DNA from: a virus
Lineage: Duplodnaviria; Caudoviricetes
IMG/VR virus record: IMGVR_UViG_3300036796_000048
Coordinates: 7,335-71,334 of that record
Length of the DNA: 64,000 nt
Direction: 5' to 3' (one strand)
Shown here: in pieces, positions 23,253 to 35,182 of the stretch
Layout of the letters: every line of letters begins with the position of its first letter
Position numbering within the stretch: position 1 is the stretch's first letter
Made by a program: the position numbers and the translations under genes
Notes under the pieces: generated by a model
Told to the model about the DNA's origin: nothing
Database searches by the model: none
What the model saw: only the letters and a program-made list of their open reading frames with translations

Positions 23253-23609
23253 ATGGCAACTTCAAATCGTGGCGCTGCCGGCTTTCCAGCAGGCGCACAA
23301 GGTGACCGTACCAGTTTCGCCCAGAGTGGTGGCAAGAACAGTACGTTCCAGGGTGGTTCTGGGGGTAATGCTTGGCAGTCTCGTGGGGGCGGCAGTAGGG
23401 GTCGTGGTAGCAAGGGATCAAGTGTACTTGGCAACGGTACGGCATACAATATTCGTGGCGCTGGTGGAGATGGCACATTGGTGCCAGGTGCTCATGGCGG
23501 CGCAGGCAAGTTGAATCTGCCGCAGGGCGCAAACCCGTCGGTCGGTAAGGGCCCAAGCATTGTTACGCCACATGAGTTAGCGCCCAAGGGCTTTGGTGGT
23601 GGCTACTAA
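23253..23609 (+). CDS. Gly-rich basic disordered protein
   Basis: GGKNSTFQGGSGGNAWQSRGGGSRGRG; AAGGA RBS. Confidence 0.6.
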   Translation: MATSNRGAAGFPAGAQGDRTSFAQSGGKNSTFQGGSGGNAWQSRGGGSRGRGSKGSSVLGNGTAYNIRGAGGDGTLVPGAHGGAGKLNLPQGANPSVGKGPSIVTPHELAPKGFGGGY

Positions 23610-23968
23610 TGACCAGTCCATATTCGGCCAACTCATATTGGGGTCCTGGCCGCAACTTTACTGCTAGTGCAACTGGTACACCAAGTGGTTGGGGTCGTGG
23701 TGCTACGCCACGCAGCATTCTCAGTCCGTGGGGCAACAATATTGGTCGCACGACACCCAATACGCAGAAGTTTGGGCCTAGCCGTAGGCGTGCGCCGGTA
23801 CCGGACGCGAGTTTGTTCAGCATCGATTATCCGGCCAATGACCCGCTGGCGTGGCCGATTATCGGTGGCAGGCGTGGACCCATTTCTGGCATGACGCAGG
23901 CAAAAGCAGATTGGTGGAATAGCGCAGTTAACCACGCCTACGCGCGCACGTACGCAGGGCTGAGTTAA
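23609..23968 (+). CDS. Pro/Gly/Arg-rich disordered protein
   Basis: TAATG coupling; low complexity. Confidence 0.55.
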   Translation: MTSPYSANSYWGPGRNFTASATGTPSGWGRGATPRSILSPWGNNIGRTTPNTQKFGPSRRRAPVPDASLFSIDYPANDPLAWPIIGGRRGPISGMTQAKADWWNSAVNHAYARTYAGLS

Positions 23969-23971
23969 CTT

Positions 23972-25261
23972 ATGCCGCGCCAATACGTTCGAGATTGGCA
24001 CGGCAGATTCGCCAAGACCGCTAGTAGACGGCCAAAACGGCTGCGTATGCGTCACAGGCGCGTTAAAATGCACGTTCGTGACAAAGCGATACAGATTGGT
24101 CGATCAAAATCGCCGCCAACTTGGGATGTTATCAATAGCACCTATGGCGCACACGCCAAAGAGGCCGGCAGAGAGCTTTGGCTACAGAAAAAGGCTGGCA
24201 AATTCAAGACAGAGGCTGAATATGTCAAGGCCATGTCCACGATTCAACGCAAATATGCCAACAAGTACCCACATTTGAAGGTTGCAAGCAAGAATCAAGT
24301 CGGCAATACCGCGTTACGCCATGAATTTGACGAGACTGGTAAGATTATTAACCTGCCAGATGTCACAGATAAGCCAACACCGCCCAAAGTTGCCACAACA
24401 CCGCCCAAGAAACGTGTACCGGTGGACAAAACACCGGGCGGGATTTCCATAGTCGCCAAGCCGCGTGGCGTAATTGATTGGGACAAGCTAGATAAAGACC
24501 CGCAGGGTCCAGGTAAAATGTGGCAAGCTATATCTGCGAAGTATCCTAATACCAAATTCGCTAGATTGTCTGTTCCTGACCACCATGATGTGCGTGATAT
24601 TTATGAAACGCTTGACGTTTTACTTGCCAAGTACCCAAATGTTAGGCTAGACAACGTTCATACGCGCGATATGCCGCTAGGCACAAGTGCTGTAATTGAA
24701 TTGTACAACAGCGGCAAAGTCGATATGGTTTTGAACGCTGATATGTTGCGCAATCCAGATATAGAGCGTAAAATGAACAGGTATGCAAAGCAATCTGGTT
24801 TCCACGGCGATTATGACCCAGAGAGACCATGGCGATATACTGTTACGCATGAGTTTGGTCACGTGTTAGATAATAGCACCATCAAACCGCACGATAGTGC
24901 ACGTGGACAGAAGATAGACGCCTACCTGGACTTCCATAACTTTGTTGAAGGTCTACACAAGAAGAGTGGCACCCAATATGGATTGGCATCATGGCTTAAA
25001 GGTCAAGTGAATGGCTATGCTAGGCATATGGATAGCGCTGGTCCACTAGTGCCAGCGCGTAGCCCATTTAATTCACCAGAAATGTTGGCCGAAGCATTCG
25101 CCGATGTTCATATTAATGGTGCTAAGGCAAGACCGCTTAACAAACCGATATCAGATTGGCTAGTTGATAGGTATCACACTCACTTCAATAATGGTTACAA
25201 GCCGGCCACTAAGCGAGATTACCCAGTTGTCGTTGATAAGACTCCAAGGAGAGCAGCATGA
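23972..25261 (+). CDS. Zincin-like (HEXXH) metallopeptidase-domain protein, probably virion-associated
   Basis: N-terminal PRQYVRDWHGRF motif; C-terminal VTHEFGH and EMLAEAF. Confidence 0.65.
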   Translation: MPRQYVRDWHGRFAKTASRRPKRLRMRHRRVKMHVRDKAIQIGRSKSPPTWDVINSTYGAHAKEAGRELWLQKKAGKFKTEAEYVKAMSTIQRKYANKYPHLKVASKNQVGNTALRHEFDETGKIINLPDVTDKPTPPKVATTPPKKRVPVDKTPGGISIVAKPRGVIDWDKLDKDPQGPGKMWQAISAKYPNTKFARLSVPDHHDVRDIYETLDVLLAKYPNVRLDNVHTRDMPLGTSAVIELYNSGKVDMVLNADMLRNPDIERKMNRYAKQSGFHGDYDPERPWRYTVTHEFGHVLDNSTIKPHDSARGQKIDAYLDFHNFVEGLHKKSGTQYGLASWLKGQVNGYARHMDSAGPLVPARSPFNSPEMLAEAFADVHINGAKARPLNKPISDWLVDRYHTHFNNGYKPATKRDYPVVVDKTPRRAA

Positions 25262-25461
25262 TACACGACACGCCAACCAAAGAGCAACTACAGAAGAACT
25301 TCGACAGCACTTTGGATGCTGCGATTAATGAAGGCTTGTGCTACAGATCAGACCAAGGATTTGCTCCCGAAGTTGAATCTGCTATCGCTGATGTTGGCGA
25401 AGAACCAACTGAAGAGAACATAAATAAAGCCAAGCAGGTGTTCGATGACAGCATTGCTTGA
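25258..25461 (+). CDS. Small acidic protein
   Basis: ATGA overlap with the metallopeptidase gene; overlaps terL start. Confidence 0.55.
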   Translation: MIHDTPTKEQLQKNFDSTLDAAINEGLCYRSDQGFAPEVESAIADVGEEPTEENINKAKQVFDDSIA

Positions 25462-27079
25462 TCCGTGGCTCATTTATGAGTCACCACAAGTAGACTGGAA
25501 TCCACATCCAGGGCAATGCCAAGTTCTAAACAGTCATGCTCGTCATAAGGTTTGGTGCGCTGGTCGTCGTACTGGAAAGTCTGAGCTTGGCGGGCACGTT
25601 CTGTTACCAGAAGCGATATATGCTAGAGGTGTAGCAGACCAATGGCGAAAGAAAGGCAAGCGTCGTGAGTTCTGGATCGTCGGAGATGAATATGTCACAG
25701 CGGACAAGGAGTTCCGTGTCATCTGGAATCTTGTCAAGCATCTTGGAATCCCCATGGATAGTGGATCTCACCACTCCATTGACGGTCGCTCTCAAGGGGT
25801 GCTCTCATTATGGAACAACGCCTTCATGGTCACAACACAATCTGCGAAGTACCCTGAGAATCTAGTTGGTGAAGCACTCTGTGGAGTGCTGATGGTTGAG
25901 GCAGCGAAGTCGAAGCCATCGACTTGGCAGAAGTTCGTTCGCCCAATGCTCAACGACTATGGCGGCTGGTCAATACATACTAGTACACCTGAAGGCAAGA
26001 ACCATTTCTATGACAAATTCGAGATGGGGCAAGACCCATATCAGCCAGACTGGCAATCTTGGAGGATGCCTGCTTGGCGTAATCCATTCGTGTACACGCC
26101 TAGTGGCCGGCGTGGCTTGCTTGACATTCCTGAAGAGGAAATGACATCCGATGAGGACGTCAAGTTTTTACTTGAGCAGATGGAGGTCCACCATAATTGG
26201 TCGGCTGCTCGAATTGCGTATGACAACGGACTTCAGATTGATTCTGAAATTGTAAGTCTAGCAGATGAGCTTACAATTGAGTTATTCAAGCAAGAAGTCT
26301 TCGCAGACTTCACTGAGTTTGTTGGGCAGGTGTTCAAAGATTATGATGAAGAATACCACGTTGGAACTCTTCATTTCAACCCAGACTGGGAAACATACGC
26401 AGCGGTGGACTATGGCTTTACCAATCCCAACGTTTGGCTTCTCATTCAAGTTGGACCTTGGGGTGAAATCAATGTTTTGGATGAGGTTTACGAACCAGGA
26501 CTTACGGCAGATGCATTTGCTGAGGAAATTAAGCGAAGAGGTCTCAACCCTCCGCAGCTCAGGATGTTCTATCCCGATCCAGCTGACCCGATGTCCAGTC
26601 GAACGCTCCAGGACAAATTGAAGATACAGGCCATGGGGGGTACTGGCGGTGAGTTGAATGTTCGCATCAATTTAATTCGTCAGGCATTGCGTGAAGGCCG
26701 TATTGATCAGAACATGAGCTACATTGATGATAGCAATTCTGAGCACTGGCGACCTAGATTGATGATCAACCGGTGTTGTACCGCTTTGCGCTCAGATATG
26801 ATGGCATATCGTTACCCAGAGCGTAAAGAAGACATGGAGACATCAGTTCCGCGTATGGAACTGCCCATGAAGAAGGACGACCACGGTCCTGAAGCGCTAG
26901 GTAGATTTATGGTTGGTCACTTTGGTGCTAGCAGTCTCATGGGGGCGAATGGTACACGAGTCAGGAAAGCTAACATCGGTCGTCATAAGCGGCGAGGTGA
27001 CCCGAAGCCTTATACCAAGCCAATTTCGGCGATGAAGCCTACACAAACGGGTTTCCCTAATTGGAAAGATTGGCTGTAA
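25445..27079 (+). CDS. terL: Terminase large subunit
   Basis: CAGRRTGKS Walker A, LMVEAA Walker B, STPEG coupling motif, AVDYGFTNP and DDHGPEALG nuclease motifs. Confidence 0.93.
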   Translation: MTALLDPWLIYESPQVDWNPHPGQCQVLNSHARHKVWCAGRRTGKSELGGHVLLPEAIYARGVADQWRKKGKRREFWIVGDEYVTADKEFRVIWNLVKHLGIPMDSGSHHSIDGRSQGVLSLWNNAFMVTTQSAKYPENLVGEALCGVLMVEAAKSKPSTWQKFVRPMLNDYGGWSIHTSTPEGKNHFYDKFEMGQDPYQPDWQSWRMPAWRNPFVYTPSGRRGLLDIPEEEMTSDEDVKFLLEQMEVHHNWSAARIAYDNGLQIDSEIVSLADELTIELFKQEVFADFTEFVGQVFKDYDEEYHVGTLHFNPDWETYAAVDYGFTNPNVWLLIQVGPWGEINVLDEVYEPGLTADAFAEEIKRRGLNPPQLRMFYPDPADPMSSRTLQDKLKIQAMGGTGGELNVRINLIRQALREGRIDQNMSYIDDSNSEHWRPRLMINRCCTALRSDMMAYRYPERKEDMETSVPRMELPMKKDDHGPEALGRFMVGHFGASSLMGANGTRVRKANIGRHKRRGDPKPYTKPISAMKPTQTGFPNWKDWL

Positions 27080-27445
27080 ATGGATTATAATCAGGCTATG
27101 CGCGTACCTGTACCGGGCCATCCAAGGTGGGAAGTTGATGAACGCGGATTTGTGTATCGGGATGGCAGATATATTCATGGTTGTGTAAACAATGGATATG
27201 TAAAAATTTATTTTGATGGTAAAACTGTTATGCGCGGCCATATAGTATGCTTAGCCTTCCATGGACCTAAGCCAGAATGTTTGGAACTTAGGCATAAAGA
27301 TGATGTTAAATTAAATGATGAGCCTGATAATTTAGCTTGGGGCACAAGATTAGAGAATTGTGCTGATCGTAAAATTAATGGTACACATGCAAATTGTAGA
27401 CCACCTATATTATTTGGTGCTGATAATCCTAGGTGGGGCCGATAA
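27080..27445 (+). CDS. NUMOD4/HNH-type homing endonuclease
   Basis: WEVDERGFV...GHIVCLAFHG...LRHKDDVKLNDEPDNLAWGTRLEN. Confidence 0.85.
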   Translation: MDYNQAMRVPVPGHPRWEVDERGFVYRDGRYIHGCVNNGYVKIYFDGKTVMRGHIVCLAFHGPKPECLELRHKDDVKLNDEPDNLAWGTRLENCADRKINGTHANCRPPILFGADNPRWGR

Positions 27446-29103
27446 TGCCTATTGATCCGAGACAGTACGACTCTGCTGTAGACTTCATTTATTCTGAGGC
27501 AGAGTTCTCAAAGACTGTCGGCAATGTGTCTAATCTGGATGACAGATTGCGATTGATGACATATGAACTGTATGAGGACTTCTATCACAACCGTCCTGAG
27601 CATATGCGTGTTGTGTTACGTGGCGAAGATGACGACTCTGTTGAGATTTACGTACCAAGCGTTAAGAAGTGTGTTGAAGCGGTAAACAGGTTCTTGTGCG
27701 TCAACTTTGATTACCAAATTGATCCAGACAGCGGTAATAGTGGCGACCAAACTATTGTTGACAATTACTTGACCACTTTGTTTGCAAAAGAAAAAGTGCT
27801 TAGTAAATTCAACACGATGAAGCGTTATATGCTCATCAAGGGAGATGCTTGCTTTCATGTTATAGGCATTCCGTGGGAGCGTCCTGGCCGGCGTGTGAAG
27901 ATCCAAGAGTTGAAACCAGAGACATATTACCCAATTGAGGATGCTGTAACTGGTCATCCTCTTGGCTGCCATATTGTGGAAGTAATCCGTAACCCCAAGA
28001 ATACTCTACGAACCAAATCTTACACAGGCGACTTTGTAGTACGTCGCCAAACTTATCGGCGTATTGTCGATGAGAATGGCATACCAATCATTGATCCAGA
28101 TAAACCTAAAGTGACAAGTGAAATTACGCTTTGGGAAATTGGTCGTTGGGATGATCGCATCAATTGGGAAGAGCTATCACAGATTGATGTTGTCCAAAAA
28201 GAGTTCCCGTTGCCAAAAGAGATTTCAGAATTACCAGTATACCATTGGAAGAATAACCCGCCACCTGGTTCTACGTGGGGTATGTCTGAATGTGCCGGTG
28301 TTGAGACAATTATTTCTGCTATGAATCAGGCAATGTCTGATGAAGACTTGACGCTCATCACGCAAGGGCTAGGTGTTTACTGGACGGATGCTGCACCTCC
28401 AGTAGATGAGAATGGTAATGAAACTGAATGGGAAATTGGTCCTGGGGCAGTTGTTCAGGTTGGTGCTGGGTCTGCTTTCAATCGTGTGTCTGGTGTCAGC
28501 TCTGTATCTCCTTACGGTGACCATATAGATCGACTCAGCGAAGCTATGCAACAAGCTCTTGGCATTCCCGACATCACTATCGGGGTCGTGGATGTAGCTA
28601 CTGCTGAATCTGGTATCGCTCTACAATTGAAGCTGTCTCCGCTGTTGGCCAAGAACGCAGAAAAAGAGCTAACAATTGCGGAAACTACTGACAACTTTCT
28701 GTCCGACATTGTAAACGGTTTTATGCCGGCGTATGAGGGCATAAATTCTAATGGCGTACAGGCTACGTCCCAGTTTGATGATCCGATGCCTACTAATCAA
28801 AGCAAGCAGCTTGAAGATGTACTGGCTATTTGGACTCAGGTTAATGTTAGTGGACAGATTTTGCCTGTCGAATGGCTATATGAACAGCTTAATGAGATCA
28901 TGGGTTATGATCTGGATGTGAATAGTGATCTACAGAAGGCAATTCAAGAGGGCACCGAGATTGCTAGCGAAGCTATGGCCGGTACAATGGGAGGTGGCGG
29001 GCCGAACGGAAGCCAATTTGGCGATCAGATGGATCAAGAGCTGGGCAACCAGCCAGACCAATTAAATGGCAAGAACTACCAATTCTCTAACATAGGAAAC
29101 TGA
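27445..29103 (+). CDS. Portal protein
   Basis: About 552 aa after terL; IKGDACFHV and WGMSECAGVETII...NQAMSDED patterns. TAATG start at 27445. Confidence 0.88.
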   Translation: MPIDPRQYDSAVDFIYSEAEFSKTVGNVSNLDDRLRLMTYELYEDFYHNRPEHMRVVLRGEDDDSVEIYVPSVKKCVEAVNRFLCVNFDYQIDPDSGNSGDQTIVDNYLTTLFAKEKVLSKFNTMKRYMLIKGDACFHVIGIPWERPGRRVKIQELKPETYYPIEDAVTGHPLGCHIVEVIRNPKNTLRTKSYTGDFVVRRQTYRRIVDENGIPIIDPDKPKVTSEITLWEIGRWDDRINWEELSQIDVVQKEFPLPKEISELPVYHWKNNPPPGSTWGMSECAGVETIISAMNQAMSDEDLTLITQGLGVYWTDAAPPVDENGNETEWEIGPGAVVQVGAGSAFNRVSGVSSVSPYGDHIDRLSEAMQQALGIPDITIGVVDVATAESGIALQLKLSPLLAKNAEKELTIAETTDNFLSDIVNGFMPAYEGINSNGVQATSQFDDPMPTNQSKQLEDVLAIWTQVNVSGQILPVEWLYEQLNEIMGYDLDVNSDLQKAIQEGTEIASEAMAGTMGGGGPNGSQFGDQMDQELGNQPDQLNGKNYQFSNIGN

Positions 29104-29108
29104 CAACT

Positions 29109-29867
29109 ATGCACAAGACTACAACGATCCATATTCCGCACAAGCCAGATTTACCTTATGCGCTTGGTCGTCATTATGAACATGACGAACGCAGCGAAGC
29201 ATTCACTATTAGCGCGCCGCCAGTTTCACCTAAGACAATCTTCTGGTCTGATGCTGCGCCGATTCTGAATCAGGGTAATATCGGTGGTTGTGTAGGTTGG
29301 ACCGGTGCTGATATCTTGAACACGGATATGTTCAAGCCTGTTCGTGACAAAATGAATAAGGGCCAATACTTCACCGACGCAGATGGGTTGAGGTTTTATG
29401 AACTGGCAACTCAAAATGATAGCACTCCTGGTAGCTATCCTCCTGATGACACTGGTAGCTCCGGTTTGGGTCTTGCTAAGGCTCTTAAGAAACTTGGACT
29501 CATTGATAAGTACGAGCATGGATTTGGTTTGAACCACTTCTTTGCCGGCATCATGACTCAGCCGTTGGCCATGGGTACTTTGTGGACGAATGATTTGTTC
29601 ACTCCTGATAGCGAAGGGATCATTCATCTTGGTGCTCTTACCGAAGACAACATCGCCGGTGGCCATGAATGGGGCTGTCGCGGAATTGATATGGAGCGTG
29701 GTTTGGCGCTTGGTCGTAACCACTGGGCAGCTAATTGGGATACTGTTAGTTTGCCTAGTGATAGCATTAAGCAAAGTGGTGAATTCTGGATTCCGCTCGA
29801 AGACGTTGAAACACTTATCAATAACGCGGGTGATATGACTTTGCTTCATGGAGTCGGGATGCCATGA
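29109..29867 (+). CDS. Papain-like (clan CA) cysteine protease
   Basis: LNQGNIGGCVG (oxyanion Q and catalytic C), GGHEW (catalytic H) and RNHW (N-x-W). Confidence 0.75.
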   Translation: MHKTTTIHIPHKPDLPYALGRHYEHDERSEAFTISAPPVSPKTIFWSDAAPILNQGNIGGCVGWTGADILNTDMFKPVRDKMNKGQYFTDADGLRFYELATQNDSTPGSYPPDDTGSSGLGLAKALKKLGLIDKYEHGFGLNHFFAGIMTQPLAMGTLWTNDLFTPDSEGIIHLGALTEDNIAGGHEWGCRGIDMERGLALGRNHWAANWDTVSLPSDSIKQSGEFWIPLEDVETLINNAGDMTLLHGVGMP

Positions 29868-30307
29868 CCACCCCGGCGCATGACCAGAATATAACGCATC
29901 ATTACATGATGCATTATCCTGAACATGAACCACGCACAAATGATCCGCACTACAAAGACTTCAACCATTATCGTCGCACCACGGCTGCTACAGCAAAGTG
30001 TCAATTTGGTCTTGATCGCGATAATGACTTCAGCGAATGTGGCCCGATTAACCCGAACTTGTGGCCGCAAGGGTTGGAGCTGCACCACGGGCATATCGAA
30101 TTTGCTTTACTCAACGGTGTAGACCTGAGTTTGCTTGAAGGCAAGTATCCTGGCATTTCTGACCCAAACCAGTTGGGAGCATGGATTGAATCTGCTGAGA
30201 ACCTAATGTGGCTTTGCGAATTTCACCACAGAGGAACTGGCGGTGTACACTCGGCTACCGCCAGCGACTATGAGAATGAGCATTATGTCCGACACCTCAT
30301 CAGTTAA
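29864..30307 (+). CDS. HNH-like zinc-binding nuclease
   Basis: KC...EC...LELHH...ENLMWLCEFHHRG...GVH. Confidence 0.6.
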   Translation: MTTPAHDQNITHHYMMHYPEHEPRTNDPHYKDFNHYRRTTAATAKCQFGLDRDNDFSECGPINPNLWPQGLELHHGHIEFALLNGVDLSLLEGKYPGISDPNQLGAWIESAENLMWLCEFHHRGTGGVHSATASDYENEHYVRHLIS

Positions 30308-32372: not shown

Positions 32373-33119
32373 ATGAAACTGAGTCCATTTGAGACCACTC
32401 CATTGTACATCCGACTTTGGGGTGGTGACGGTGATGACGACAAGCAGCAGCAACCGGATCAACCTGAGGTCAAAGTTGAAGTTAAGACTGGTGGCGAGCC
32501 GGATAACGATTCTGGGGATGCCGGCAAACCCGATGGAGATGATGGCAAGTCTGATAGCGATGAGTTTGAGAAGAAGTTTGATCAAGAGCGAAAGGCTAGA
32601 CTCAAATTACAGCGCGAGTTGGACAAAAGAGATCAGGAAGCAGCTAAGGTAAACACCGATACAGAAGCTGAGCTCAACGACTACAAGCAGAAGTATGAAC
32701 AGCTGAAGGCTTATGTTGAAAAAGATGGTATTGACACCGCCATCATGAAAGAGTCCAACAAAAAGGACAAGGATGGGCACCCCAAGTACGAATGGCATGA
32801 TGTTGAAGCTGTTCGCGCTTTCATCAATAAGGACAACATACGTTTAGACCTTGAAGCCGGCACTGTTGATGGTCTTGACCTTGAGCTGAAGCGTATCGCC
32901 AAGGAACGTTCGTATTTGTTGGTGCCTTCCAAACAACCAGACAATAACGATGGCAATCCCGCCGACAAATCTCCTGCTAATGGTGGCCCCGCTTCTGGCG
33001 GTCACCCATTTGGTGCAGGTGGTGGACGTCAGCGTGAAACTGATTCAAAGAAAATTGGTGCGAAATACAAGATTCCAGGCTTTGGTCCTGGGGCAGCATC
33101 AGCAGTCCGGCCGTTGTAG
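32373..33119 (+). CDS. Capsid scaffolding protein
   Basis: Acidic disordered N-terminus, central coiled coil, position upstream of the capsid genes; N-terminal IRLWGGDG. Confidence 0.8.
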   Translation: MKLSPFETTPLYIRLWGGDGDDDKQQQPDQPEVKVEVKTGGEPDNDSGDAGKPDGDDGKSDSDEFEKKFDQERKARLKLQRELDKRDQEAAKVNTDTEAELNDYKQKYEQLKAYVEKDGIDTAIMKESNKKDKDGHPKYEWHDVEAVRAFINKDNIRLDLEAGTVDGLDLELKRIAKERSYLLVPSKQPDNNDGNPADKSPANGGPASGGHPFGAGGGRQRETDSKKIGAKYKIPGFGPGAASAVRPL

Positions 33120-33134
33120 GAAAAGGAGCAACTA

Positions 33135-33563
33135 ATGGCCCGTTATGACAAGTATGACCCGATCAATGGTGGCTTTCGTGCTGCCATTGCCGCTGACTTT
33201 CCTGATGCCAATTTGGGTAAGGTCTATGGTGTGGGTTTGAACAGCACGGGGCAGGTGGTCATTGGGTCCGGTCAGAGCGGGATCATTGGATTGCTTGTCG
33301 TGACGCAAAAGCCGGGTCGAGTTGGTCCACTTAAGGAAGTGCCAGTTATTGATGTGATGCGTACTGGTTGCATCACTGACTTTGGCCCCACTTCTGGCAC
33401 TCCAGGTGTTACTTTTGGCGCTGCTGGCACTGCGTATTATAGCGATGCTTCAGGCAACATCTCCGCAACTTGGGCTAGTGGTTCATTTTACGTCGGCACC
33501 ACTGTCGAGCCTGACAGGCTAGAAGTGAATGTCATCCCAACACTCGCGGCTACTGCCGTTTAA
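33135..33563 (+). CDS. Probable capsid decoration protein
   Basis: 142-aa Gly-rich beta protein between scaffold and MCP (MARYDKYDPINGGFRA). Confidence 0.6.
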   Translation: MARYDKYDPINGGFRAAIAADFPDANLGKVYGVGLNSTGQVVIGSGQSGIIGLLVVTQKPGRVGPLKEVPVIDVMRTGCITDFGPTSGTPGVTFGAAGTAYYSDASGNISATWASGSFYVGTTVEPDRLEVNVIPTLAATAV

Positions 33564-33590
33564 TCGCTCTGATAGCCTGAAAGGATAAAA

Positions 33591-34760
33591 ATGGCAGAGA
33601 AGTTGCTCCGACTTTGGGGTGGTGACGGTAACCGTTCTGGTTACATGACTGAGGGTGATATCCTCACCCATACCATTGATGGTGTCGATTTGAACTTGCT
33701 ATGGCAGGAATTCATCGATGCCAACACCATCTATAATGAGCACAAGCAAGGTATGGTCGGCATGCTCACCTATCCGGTGACTTCCGATATCGAACTTGTA
33801 CCTCAGATTGGTGATTTCGCGTTTGAGATCGCTACTGAGTTTGGTATCCCGCGAGGGCAGAATACCAACATCAGTTACTACCAGCTTGCGTACGCTTACC
33901 AGGACTATGACTTGAAGTTGGGTTACACCTGGAAGTTCTTACGTGATGCTCCTGCTTCTCAGGTTGAAGCTGTCCACACCAAGGCAATTCAGGCTGACCA
34001 GGCTTTGGGGTTCCGTAAGGTAATGGAGGCTCTGTTCGATAACCGTAGCCGTCAGACGATTATCAACAGCTTGACCTACAACGTGTATCCTCTTGCTAAC
34101 GGAGATGGCTGGATTCCTCCTGCTTACAAGGGAGTTAGCTTTGATGGCTCGCACAACCACTATCTTGTAAGTGGTGCGGCGACTATCGACTCTGGCGACT
34201 TTGAAGGTGCCGTTAACCACCTTACCGAACACGGTTATGGGTGGGACACGGGTACGCAGATTGTGTGCTTCGCTAACCGTGCTGAGATCAACCAGATACG
34301 CACGTGGCGATTCGGACAGGCTAACCAGAATACAGTAGTTGCAAACTACGATTTCGTACCTGCTCTTGGTCAGCCTGCTCTGCTTGTTCCCAACGCAGAA
34401 GGTCTGTTGGGTGGCCAGGCTCCTGCTGTCTGGAACGGTCTGCGCGTTACTGGTTCTTACATGGACGTCATCGTCATTGAAGAGCCTCTGATGGTCGCCG
34501 GCACGTTGCTGTTCATGAGCACCGGTGGCGTGAATATGGATGAGAACATCGTTGGTGTGCGTGAGCACGCTTCGCCGGACTGGCGGGGTTTGAAGCTGTT
34601 GCCGGGTAACCAGCAGAGGTACCCTTTGATCGATGGCTATTATGTTCACGGCTTTGGTACTGGCGTTCGTCGTCGTACTGGTGCTGTTGTCCTTCAGATC
34701 AAGGCGACTGGATCGTATGCTGCTCCGACTGCTTACAGCTTGACTGGCGCAACTAGGTAA
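33591..34760 (+). CDS. Major capsid protein
   Basis: 389 aa, strongly biased codon usage, AAGGA RBS, synteny; N-terminal LRLWGGDG. Confidence 0.88.
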   Translation: MAEKLLRLWGGDGNRSGYMTEGDILTHTIDGVDLNLLWQEFIDANTIYNEHKQGMVGMLTYPVTSDIELVPQIGDFAFEIATEFGIPRGQNTNISYYQLAYAYQDYDLKLGYTWKFLRDAPASQVEAVHTKAIQADQALGFRKVMEALFDNRSRQTIINSLTYNVYPLANGDGWIPPAYKGVSFDGSHNHYLVSGAATIDSGDFEGAVNHLTEHGYGWDTGTQIVCFANRAEINQIRTWRFGQANQNTVVANYDFVPALGQPALLVPNAEGLLGGQAPAVWNGLRVTGSYMDVIVIEEPLMVAGTLLFMSTGGVNMDENIVGVREHASPDWRGLKLLPGNQQRYPLIDGYYVHGFGTGVRRRTGAVVLQIKATGSYAAPTAYSLTGATR

Positions 34761-34768
34761 GGTGGAGT

Positions 34769-35182
34769 ATGAGTCGCAAGATTGACTTTGATAAGCCACT
34801 CTCAGATGAAGACAAAGAGTGGTTGCATGGATGGTCGCAAGACTATCTCATTGATGAGAATGCGCGCAAGTTTGACAAGGCGTACCAGAAGTCTACAGGA
34901 CCAGAGATTCCGCGTATTGAAGTGAATGCGCCAGCGGCGCCAAGGGATCCACGGGACTTCCCGAATGATAAAGTTGCAACAGGTCCTGTGTATCCCACAG
35001 ATGTGAATGCTGGTCAAGTTCAGCAATATGCTGATACTTCTAGTAAGCCGGTTGAAGAAGAAGTGGACATCAACGATCTCACGGTTGATGAACTCAAGGA
35101 TGAACTGCGTAAACTCGATGAGCCTGTAAGTGGCACCAAGGATGAGCTTGTAAAGCGTCTCTCCAAAGCTTTGGAGGACTAA
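34769..35182 (+). CDS. Head-associated protein with C-terminal SAP/HeH motif
   Basis: DLTVDELKDELRKLDEPVSGTKDELVKRL is a SAP consensus. Confidence 0.7.
   Translation: MSRKIDFDKPLSDEDKEWLHGWSQDYLIDENARKFDKAYQKSTGPEIPRIEVNAPAAPRDPRDFPNDKVATGPVYPTDVNAGQVQQYADTSSKPVEEEVDINDLTVDELKDELRKLDEPVSGTKDELVKRLSKALED

Follow-up and report, generated by a model that had tools for sequence, protein, structure and literature searches.

Shared Gly-Gly leaders on the scaffold and major capsid protein of a Patience-like phage, and a stand-alone JAMM metalloprotease as their candidate peptidase

Introduction

Why should the scaffolding protein and the major capsid protein (MCP) of a phage begin with the same short peptide, and which enzyme, if any, removes it when no familiar prohead protease is encoded? 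These questions are raised by an actinobacterial-type phage, the viral record IMGVR_UViG_3300036796_000048 (71,334 bp, rated 100% complete), of which we analyzed a 64 kb stretch with a G+C content of ~47%, referred to here as the window. The open reading frames (ORFs) of its head module (25.4-35.2 kb of the window) were scanned against Pfam and PHROG. They include a scaffold and an MCP that both carry the motif RLWGGDG close to the N-terminus and, a short distance upstream, a small stand-alone JAMM/MPN+ metalloprotease. An earlier note, made from the sequence alone, had proposed that short N-terminal propeptides are removed in this phage by a protease of a deubiquitinase fold, and that core idea is supported by the co-variation of the leaders, by the N-termini published for phage Patience and by the joint loss of the JAMM gene and the leaders in one clade.

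We suggest that both the scaffold and the MCP carry a short N-terminal leader when they are synthesized, with a length of 18 and 11 residues, respectively, here and of up to ~40 in relatives, and that at its end a run of hydrophobic residues leads into Gly-Gly (RLWGG). The 116-residue JAMM enzyme, encoded two genes upstream, would read this ubiquitin-tail-like sequence (compare LRLRGG) and cleave behind the final Gly while the procapsid assembles or afterwards, so that the MCP would start from D12 and the scaffold from D19. That the leaders are removed after Gly in the present phage we regard as probable; the whole statement, in which both leaders are removed after a Gly-Gly-type site by the phage's own JAMM, is less secure, and we nonetheless favor it. 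We infer that JAMM is the enzyme and which bond it cuts in this phage, as well as what the leaders are for, which may be the timing of assembly or the targeting of the enzyme into the procapsid.

Results and Discussion

A shared N-terminal motif in the scaffold and the MCP

The scaffold ORF begins MKLSPFETTPLYIRLWGGDGDDD, with RLWGGDG at residues 14-20, and the MCP ORF begins MAEKLLRLWGGDGNRSGY, with RLWGGDG at residues 7-13. We read the scaffold N-terminus as MKLSPFETTPLYIRLWGG-DGDDD and that of the MCP as MAEKLLRLWGG-DGNRSGY, where the hyphen marks the predicted cut, which gives predicted leaders of residues 1-18 (32373-32426) and 1-11 (33591-33623) and predicted mature N-termini at the two Asp residues named above. 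Both copies of the motif are encoded by an identical 23-nucleotide string, TCCGACTTTGGGGTGGTGACGGT, which occurs twice in the window, whereas none is expected from 100 shuffles even with three mismatches allowed. All six degenerate codons within it are identical (P = 6e-4 from the codon usage of the window). There is no third copy of the string within the window, and a motif scan over all of its long ORFs returned no other N-terminal copy of the motif. The motif RLWGG↓DG (the arrow marks a proposed cut) that had been noticed at the start of both proteins is thus borne out by the ORF translations and by the exact repeat at the DNA level.

The exact nucleotide identity is specific to the present genome, as the synonymous sites of relatives differ. 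It probably reflects a recent gene conversion between the 5' ends of the scaffold and MCP genes that homogenized the two leader copies, and gene conversion could be one mechanism behind the concerted evolution of the leaders described below. The leaders themselves, at 11-18 residues here and at most ~40 in relatives, are too short to form a beta-grasp ubiquitin-like domain, and the Pfam scan of the head ORFs returned no ubiquitin-like (Ubl) family.

The two leaders co-vary across lineages

The MCP matches the structures of the Adjutor (PDB 8SAJ, 1e-142) and Patience (PDB 8GIU, 6.6e-116) capsid proteins, placing it in the 'Patience-like' HK97-fold family. A tblastn search returned 161 phage records, with Mycobacterium, Gordonia, Microbacterium, Arthrobacter, Nocardia and others as hosts, the nearest being Mycobacterium phage Onyinye at 78.6% identity. 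A module consisting of JAMM, usually MuF, then scaffold, minor capsid protein and MCP is common to 12 annotated loci. We added 80 IMG/VR loci, which were annotated with family profiles and reduced to 53 non-redundant lineages (L numbers below).

A leader motif shared by scaffold and MCP is found in 13 of 13 named lineages and in most of the ~50 non-redundant metagenomic lineages. When the annotated starts are translated, it is apparent that the motif varies between lineages and matches within a genome (Table 1). The consensus is a hydrophobic or Pro-rich run that ends in Gly, often Gly-Gly; the next residue is acidic or small, and scaffolds then continue with a low-complexity tract of acidic character. 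The earlier proposal of cleavage after Gly-Gly therefore holds in part: a Gly at P1 preceded by hydrophobic residues is general, but Gly-Gly is not, as many lineages have xG↓ in place of GG↓.

Table 1. Ends of the leaders of scaffold and MCP in named phages (hyphen, predicted cut)
Phage	Scaffold	MCP
Onyinye	KLRLRFGDG-EG	KLLVRGG-EG
Wojtek	SLSIFG-AEGED	APIYG-AERR
Prager (Adjutor/PBI1 type)	GLTLSG-HDDD	VVGLSG-HDNQ
Patience	VLPIFGG-TSPE	VFPIFGG-TAPV
Send513	PIPPFGG-ETDD	TRLPFGG-EDTA
Madi	KFFAFGG-DGG	KFFAFGG-DGG
Oaker	AWPIFGG-EDN	VFPIFGG-TQP
Barnyard	AWPIFGG-SSP	AWGSLGG-GTAP

To score co-variation, each MCP N-terminus was compared with each scaffold N-terminus by their best 7-mer match without gaps. 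Across the 53 lineages this score averages 24.0 against the scaffold of the same genome and 17.2 against other scaffolds; the observed total was never attained in 20,000 random re-pairings (p <= 5e-5), so the two leaders evolve in concert. This pattern, alike within a genome but drifting from one lineage to the next, would follow from the need for a single enzyme to recognize both substrates.

The close clade of the window, with MCPs 77-87% identical, keeps [LF]-R-[IF]-W-G-G-[DEAS]-G in both genes; had the RLWGG-type motif been missing from homologs the proposal would have failed, and in these close relatives it is kept at the protein level. Identical codons between the two leaders number 2/7, 2/7, 3/6, 3/7, 3/5 and 2/7 in this clade, which is near random for synonymous sites. 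Since the motif is kept while its synonymous sites are close to random, selection acts on the peptide. Over all lineages, 77 of 156 identical residues share a codon against 61.5 expected, with the closest clade at or below expectation.

Published N-termini of relatives fall on the motif

Two published observations on Patience, each obtained with another aim, bear on this motif. Peptides of Patience gp21 begin at residue 35, with Gly at -1, a position that is neither tryptic nor the translation start; the protein is also listed among those N-terminally acetylated, is nearly absent from virions (only three spectra in particles), and its processing was left unexplained (Pope et al. 2014, PMC4324244). 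This protein is the homolog of the window's scaffold, and by our count residue 35 is the Thr of PIFGG-T (G34↓T35). The cryo-electron microscopy (cryo-EM) model of the Patience MCP starts at Thr20, which is described as the chain terminus, and the first 19 residues are absent from it (Podgorski et al. 2025, PMC11965321). Again by our count, G19↓T20 is the shared PIFGG↓T. Two independent methods, mass spectrometry of the scaffold and cryo-EM of the MCP, thus fall on the same bond of the same motif. The Adjutor MCP has been modeled from N28 (Podgorski et al. 2025, PMC11965321), and the shared LSG of that phage lies at residue 25; a model that starts two residues after the motif is compatible with the predicted cut, and less exact than Patience.

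Two further candidate substrates were considered and rejected. The decoration (minor capsid) protein encoded between scaffold and MCP had been credited with a weaker site, INGG↓F, but its Gly-Gly lies in a conserved Y/N-x-GG-F/Y-R-A element of the fold, and Onyinye has PINSTF for PINGGF. It is homologous to the minor capsid proteins of Patience and Adjutor, which carry their N-terminal methionine (Podgorski et al. 2025, PMC11965321), so this third site does not stand. The sequence LAWPIIGG↓RRG in the ORF at 23609-23968 was dismissed as well, as the homologs in L019 and Onyinye, both of which have a JAMM gene, lack the Gly-Gly.

An intact JAMM enzyme accompanies the leaders

The product of the JAMM gene matches Prok-JAB (PF14464) with 33.2 bits against a cut-off of 25, and contains the complete catalytic set E30, H70-S-H72, S80 and D83 (Glu, then H-x-H-x7-S-x2-D), which is invariant in 24 homologs. 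Its AlphaFold2 (AF2) model has a predicted local distance difference test score (pLDDT) of 96.3, and Foldseek relates it with probability 1.00 to PfJAMM1, Rpn11, AMSH-LP and CSN5 (template modeling score, TM, ~0.6). The best structural neighbors are Pyrococcus furiosus JAMM1 with and without SAMP2, Rpn11, AMSH-LP/STAMBPL1, CSN5, AF2198 and the CBASS protein Cap3. Enzymes of this set (PfJAMM1, Rpn11, AMSH-LP, CSN5, AF2198 and Cap3) all cut after a C-terminal Gly-Gly tail. A PDB sequence search with the JAMM and papain-fold proteins of the window gave nothing useful, the similarity to solved JAMMs being below detection. The Prok-JAB match, the catalytic residues and the MPN fold together confirm that an intact JAMM enzyme is encoded here, as had been claimed.

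It is the only JAB protein in the genome. A search of the entire 71-kb genome for proteases of the S78, ClpP and S49 families gave nothing at E <= 1, and none appeared in the Pfam and PHROG scans of the head ORFs, in agreement with the earlier observation that an HK97-type or ClpP-like prohead protease is lacking. Genes for a JAMM protein with an intact E...HxH...S..D motif are present in 13 of 13 named lineages and also in nearly all IMG/VR loci with enough upstream sequence, and the order portal ... JAMM-MuF-scaffold-minor capsid protein-MCP is conserved in most lineages. No other protease gene accompanies the leaders in this way. Madi/L090, L031, L035 and L052 all have JAMM and leaders but no MuF, which is therefore not needed for the leader system.

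Annotations of the JAMM homologs are divided. In GenBank they are named 'protease' (Patience gp19), 'metalloprotease', 'capsid maturation protease' (Prager) and 'M67 family metallopeptidase' (Nocardia P3.1); in PHROG-based RefSeq annotation the name is 'tail protein'. The tail protein gpK of phage lambda carries a JAB domain.

The JAMM gene and both leaders are lost together

The strongest support for JAMM as the peptidase comes from what amounts to a natural experiment. A clade comprising L036-L044 and L062 has MCPs ~80% identical to that of the window. Its contigs carry terminase, portal, the phrog_1375 gene, scaffold, minor capsid protein and MCP, with only 85 nucleotides at the place of JAMM and MuF, and no JAB was found on them. 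The MCP in this clade starts directly with MTSPVYHSGTL, with a stop codon eight codons upstream, and the scaffold starts directly in its polar, acidic region. In the MCP tree the leader-less clade is nested inside the RIWGG clade (support 0.99-1.0) as sister to L031 plus L035 (support 0.996). Those two lineages and the basal L052 lack MuF and keep JAMM and both leaders, and the loss of MuF is on this pattern separable from the joint loss of JAMM and both leaders.

Two side observations concern leader-less capsids. In L037 and L040-L044 (for example L041, 6443-9128) a capsid can evidently assemble without the whole leader system. In L050 (1074-2255) the MCP starts MAGQRSGYL without a leader; this lineage is sister to the leader-bearing L048 and likely represents a second, independent loss of the MCP leader, on a contig that is too short to show the JAMM position.

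Alternative explanations

The alternative that survives best, although we consider it unlikely, is that the leaders are cut after Gly by some other protease (a host enzyme, in the manner of Prp on Staphylococcus phage 80alpha, the papain-family protein at 29109 in this subclade or the HEFGH zincin at 23972) and that JAMM has a different role in head assembly. In favor of the papain-family candidate, its ORF directly follows the portal gene and its catalytic apparatus is intact: Foldseek relates the AF2 model (pLDDT 78) to xylellain, Lpg2622, papain and cathepsins with E down to 5e-9, and Q55, C61, H186, N204 and W206 are invariant in seven homologs, even though the protein has no Pfam hit. The gene was, however, found only in L019, L023/24, L035, L045, L048/49 and L052. 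It is missing from Onyinye, from all distant leader-bearing lineages and from L028-L034, a group that is sister to the papain-bearing L023 and shares its leader. This patchy distribution disfavors the papain-family enzyme as a conserved leader peptidase, although it may have a role in this subclade. The earlier note had offered either this enzyme or JAMM as the deubiquitinase-like partner, to be told apart by co-occurrence with the leaders; both are real and intact, but only JAMM accompanies the leaders, the papain-fold gene being absent from most leader-bearing relatives. The HEFGH zincin (23972-25261) was rejected as a conserved protease: Pfam gives no match for it, Patience, Prager and Madi do not have it, and what it matches is only the C-terminal cargo part of the Send513 MuF and repeats in Onyinye. 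As to a host enzyme, phages of a single host, M. smegmatis, differ widely in their leader motif, as is more readily understood if the enzyme is encoded by the phage. That JAMM and both leaders were lost jointly also speaks against this alternative as a whole.

Several observations do weigh against the JAMM as leader peptidase, and the first two of them favor the action of another protease. In Haunter, Wollypog and Huwbert, JAMM is encoded a long way from the head genes. L093 has the leader-like motifs RWPILG↓AS and LPMQGG↓AL, yet no JAMM could be detected on its 84%-complete contig by Pfam, by our own profile or by motif scan. The motif scan of L093 and L078 gave nothing convincing, while the same pattern recovered the Haunter gene; the L078 contig starts inside the scaffold gene and is uninformative on absence, and one in-frame match in L093 was discarded because it lies in a spurious frame opposite the DNA polymerase gene. 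The joint loss of JAMM and leaders counts as one evolutionary event only, and the contigs that show it are no more than 20-45% complete. Classical JAMMs act on isopeptide bonds or on tails that extend from folded ubiquitin-like domains, whereas the substrate here would be a leader of 11-35 residues without a beta-grasp domain. The Adjutor model begins two residues past the predicted cut, so it does not fix the exact bond. Finally, cleavage of the Patience MCP (gp23) at 82/83 has been proposed (Pope et al. 2014, PMC4324244), a proposal that the later cryo-EM model contradicts.

A second alternative is that the shared motif is never cleaved and acts as a signal for assembly or targeting, such as a common docking peptide for portal, scaffold or MuF, the missing N-termini being due to disorder or sample handling. 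Residues that look trimmed in cryo-EM can indeed be merely disordered, and the offset of the Adjutor model could be read in this way. The Patience data are hard to reconcile with it, as the gp21 peptides from T35 are non-tryptic and come from a protein listed as N-terminally acetylated, the N-terminus of the MCP at T20 is ordered and described as a chain end, and the two methods agree on one bond; we judge this explanation improbable. Least credible of all is that the 23-nucleotide repeat is a regulatory or recombination element acting as DNA or RNA, with the likeness of the peptides a by-product: its exact identity, synonymous positions included, would suit such an element, but in relatives the peptide motif of both genes persists although its codons are scrambled, the window holds no third copy, and a recent gene conversion of co-evolving leaders explains the identity.

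Cleavage of both leaders by the phage's own JAMM thus remains the explanation that we prefer. Extended to relatives, it would mean that actinobacterial phages of a large group mature their capsids with stand-alone JAMM/MPN+ enzymes, a class of protease not recognized in this role so far, which would co-evolve with the leaders, sometimes by way of leader gene conversion, and could be lost with them as a unit. The class would take in the Patience, Adjutor/PBI1, Send513, Barnyard/Oaker, Onyinye, Lambo and Terapin types along with many uncultured relatives; we lean towards this wider claim, a little more cautiously than towards the one on the present phage. Literature searches on JAMM, MPN or JAB together with prohead or capsid maturation returned no paper that credits this enzyme class with head maturation, and none linking the shared motif, the N-termini and JAMM. 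As far as these searches reach, that link is new, the genes themselves being already annotated as proteases in GenBank.

Relation to known systems

The closest comparison is the Patience/Adjutor module (8GIU, 8SAJ), whose MCP, minor capsid, scaffold, MuF and JAMM proteins belong to the same families and are encoded in the same order. In Patience the leaders of both scaffold and MCP end in PIFGG and the published N-termini lie exactly after it; the present phage differs in its RLWGG motif, shorter leaders, additional papain-family gene and exact DNA repeat.

Proteolysis has a textbook place in head maturation, but to our knowledge the enzymes have been limited to serine proteases of a few families, with the host protease Prp as a case apart. 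The JAMM gene resembles the classical prohead protease genes (HK97 gp4 of family S78, T4 gp21, lambda gpC of family S49 and the ClpP-like enzymes) in lying within the head module upstream of scaffold and MCP and in having these two proteins as its proposed substrates. It differs from them in sharing no homology and in that short leaders only would be removed, not a delta domain or a whole scaffold. In the case involving Prp, the scaffold gp46 and capsid protein gp47 of phage 80alpha reportedly carry leaders of 13-14 residues with a shared motif, which are removed by the host enzyme. Prp is a cysteine protease of the host that normally acts on ribosomal protein L27, and the 80alpha motif ends in Phe-Ala. 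The likeness to the present locus lies in a leader motif shared by scaffold and MCP, in removal by a single protease, as proposed here, and in the lack of a classical prohead protease. Unlike in 80alpha, the candidate enzyme is a phage-encoded zinc JAMM, the cut would follow Gly, and the motif varies with the phage and not with the host.

The enzyme shares its fold and the E...HxH...S..D motif with PfJAMM1-SAMP2 (5LDA), Rpn11, AMSH-LP, CSN5 and Cap3, and the proposed cut follows a hydrophobic-x-Gly-Gly sequence much as in the LRLRGG of ubiquitin (LWGG here, LVRGG or LRLRFG in Onyinye). In contrast to known JAMMs, it would act on an ordinary peptide bond behind a short N-terminal leader, in head assembly and not in tail assembly, sulfur transfer or the removal of conjugates. 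Maturation of virions by a protease of deubiquitinase-type fold is known from adenovirus, whose protease has the consensus (M/I/L)XGG↓X, and from African swine fever virus (ASFV), whose pS273R cuts GG↓X. LWGG↓D and IFGG↓T fit the adenovirus consensus; those enzymes are, however, clan CE cysteine proteases of eukaryotic viruses with unrelated capsids, and the likeness would be convergent.

If the proposal is correct, it adds a new enzyme class to phage assembly and a prokaryotic-virus parallel to Gly-Gly maturation in adenovirus and ASFV. It would also account for two observations on Patience that have had no explanation, the start of gp21 at residue 35 and the absence of residues 1-19 from the MCP, and would correct annotations such as 'tail protein' as well as the proposed MCP cleavage at 82/83. 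A protease that co-evolves with two substrates would make a simple natural system for the study of such co-evolution, and possibly a compact tag-removal enzyme of tunable specificity. The idea can be put to a direct test, since many relatives grow in culture on M. smegmatis, Gordonia or Microbacterium.

Organization of the locus

The features of the head module are collected in Table 2. The 3' end of the JAMM ORF overlaps the start of MuF by 8 nucleotides.

Table 2. Features of the head module, with positions in the window
Feature	Position	Strand	Match or remark
Terminase	25445-27079		
HNH-like ORF	27080-27445		between terminase and portal
Portal	27433-29103		
Papain-family (C1-like) cysteine protease, 252 residues	29109-29867	+	phrog_16701 'peptidase', 4.8e-31
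HNH-type ORF	29864-30307		
Several small basic or membrane ORFs	between the HNH ORF (29864-30307) and the Prok-JAB gene		
phrog_1375 protein, 100 residues	30778-31080		directly upstream of JAMM
Stand-alone JAMM/MPN+ zinc metalloprotease, 116 residues	31077-31427	+	Pfam Prok-JAB, 5.3e-8; putative leader peptidase
MuF-like minor head protein, 304 residues	31420-32334	+	phrog_17987, phrog_25879, phrog_1657
Scaffolding protein, 248 residues	32373-33119	+	Pfam Phage_scaffold, 2.4e-11
23-nucleotide exact repeat, copy 1, coding (I)RLWGGDG	32410-32432	+	in scaffold gene
Minor capsid/decoration protein, 142 residues	33135-33563	+	phrog_5042, 4e-50
MCP, 389 residues	33591-34760	+	phrog_3990, 3.6e-146
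23-nucleotide exact repeat, copy 2, coding (L)RLWGGDG	33607-33629	+	in MCP gene
SAP-domain protein	34769-35182		follows MCP

The two HNH-type ORFs break up the head module. The one at 29864 has no homolog in any of the related loci and is probably a mobile endonuclease insertion. The phrog_1375 protein is conserved just upstream of JAMM and, in the clade without JAMM, is kept upstream of the scaffold. In L093 (5453-7436) a 96-residue, Cys/His-rich ORF resembling a zinc ribbon stands directly upstream of MuF, where JAMM usually lies.

The protein encoded after the MCP has an N-terminus, MSRxIDxxxPLSDED..., that is conserved across the family, and here a C-terminal SAP DNA-binding domain (4.5e-12). 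Of its Patience homolog, gp24, only the N-terminal half is reportedly represented in virions, which suggests a second processing event. The 429-residue protein with the HEFGH zincin motif is encoded just upstream of terminase, and its C-terminal half matches the cargo end of the 856-residue Send513 MuF; it is probably a polymorphic effector domain of the MuF-linked kind that stands on its own here.

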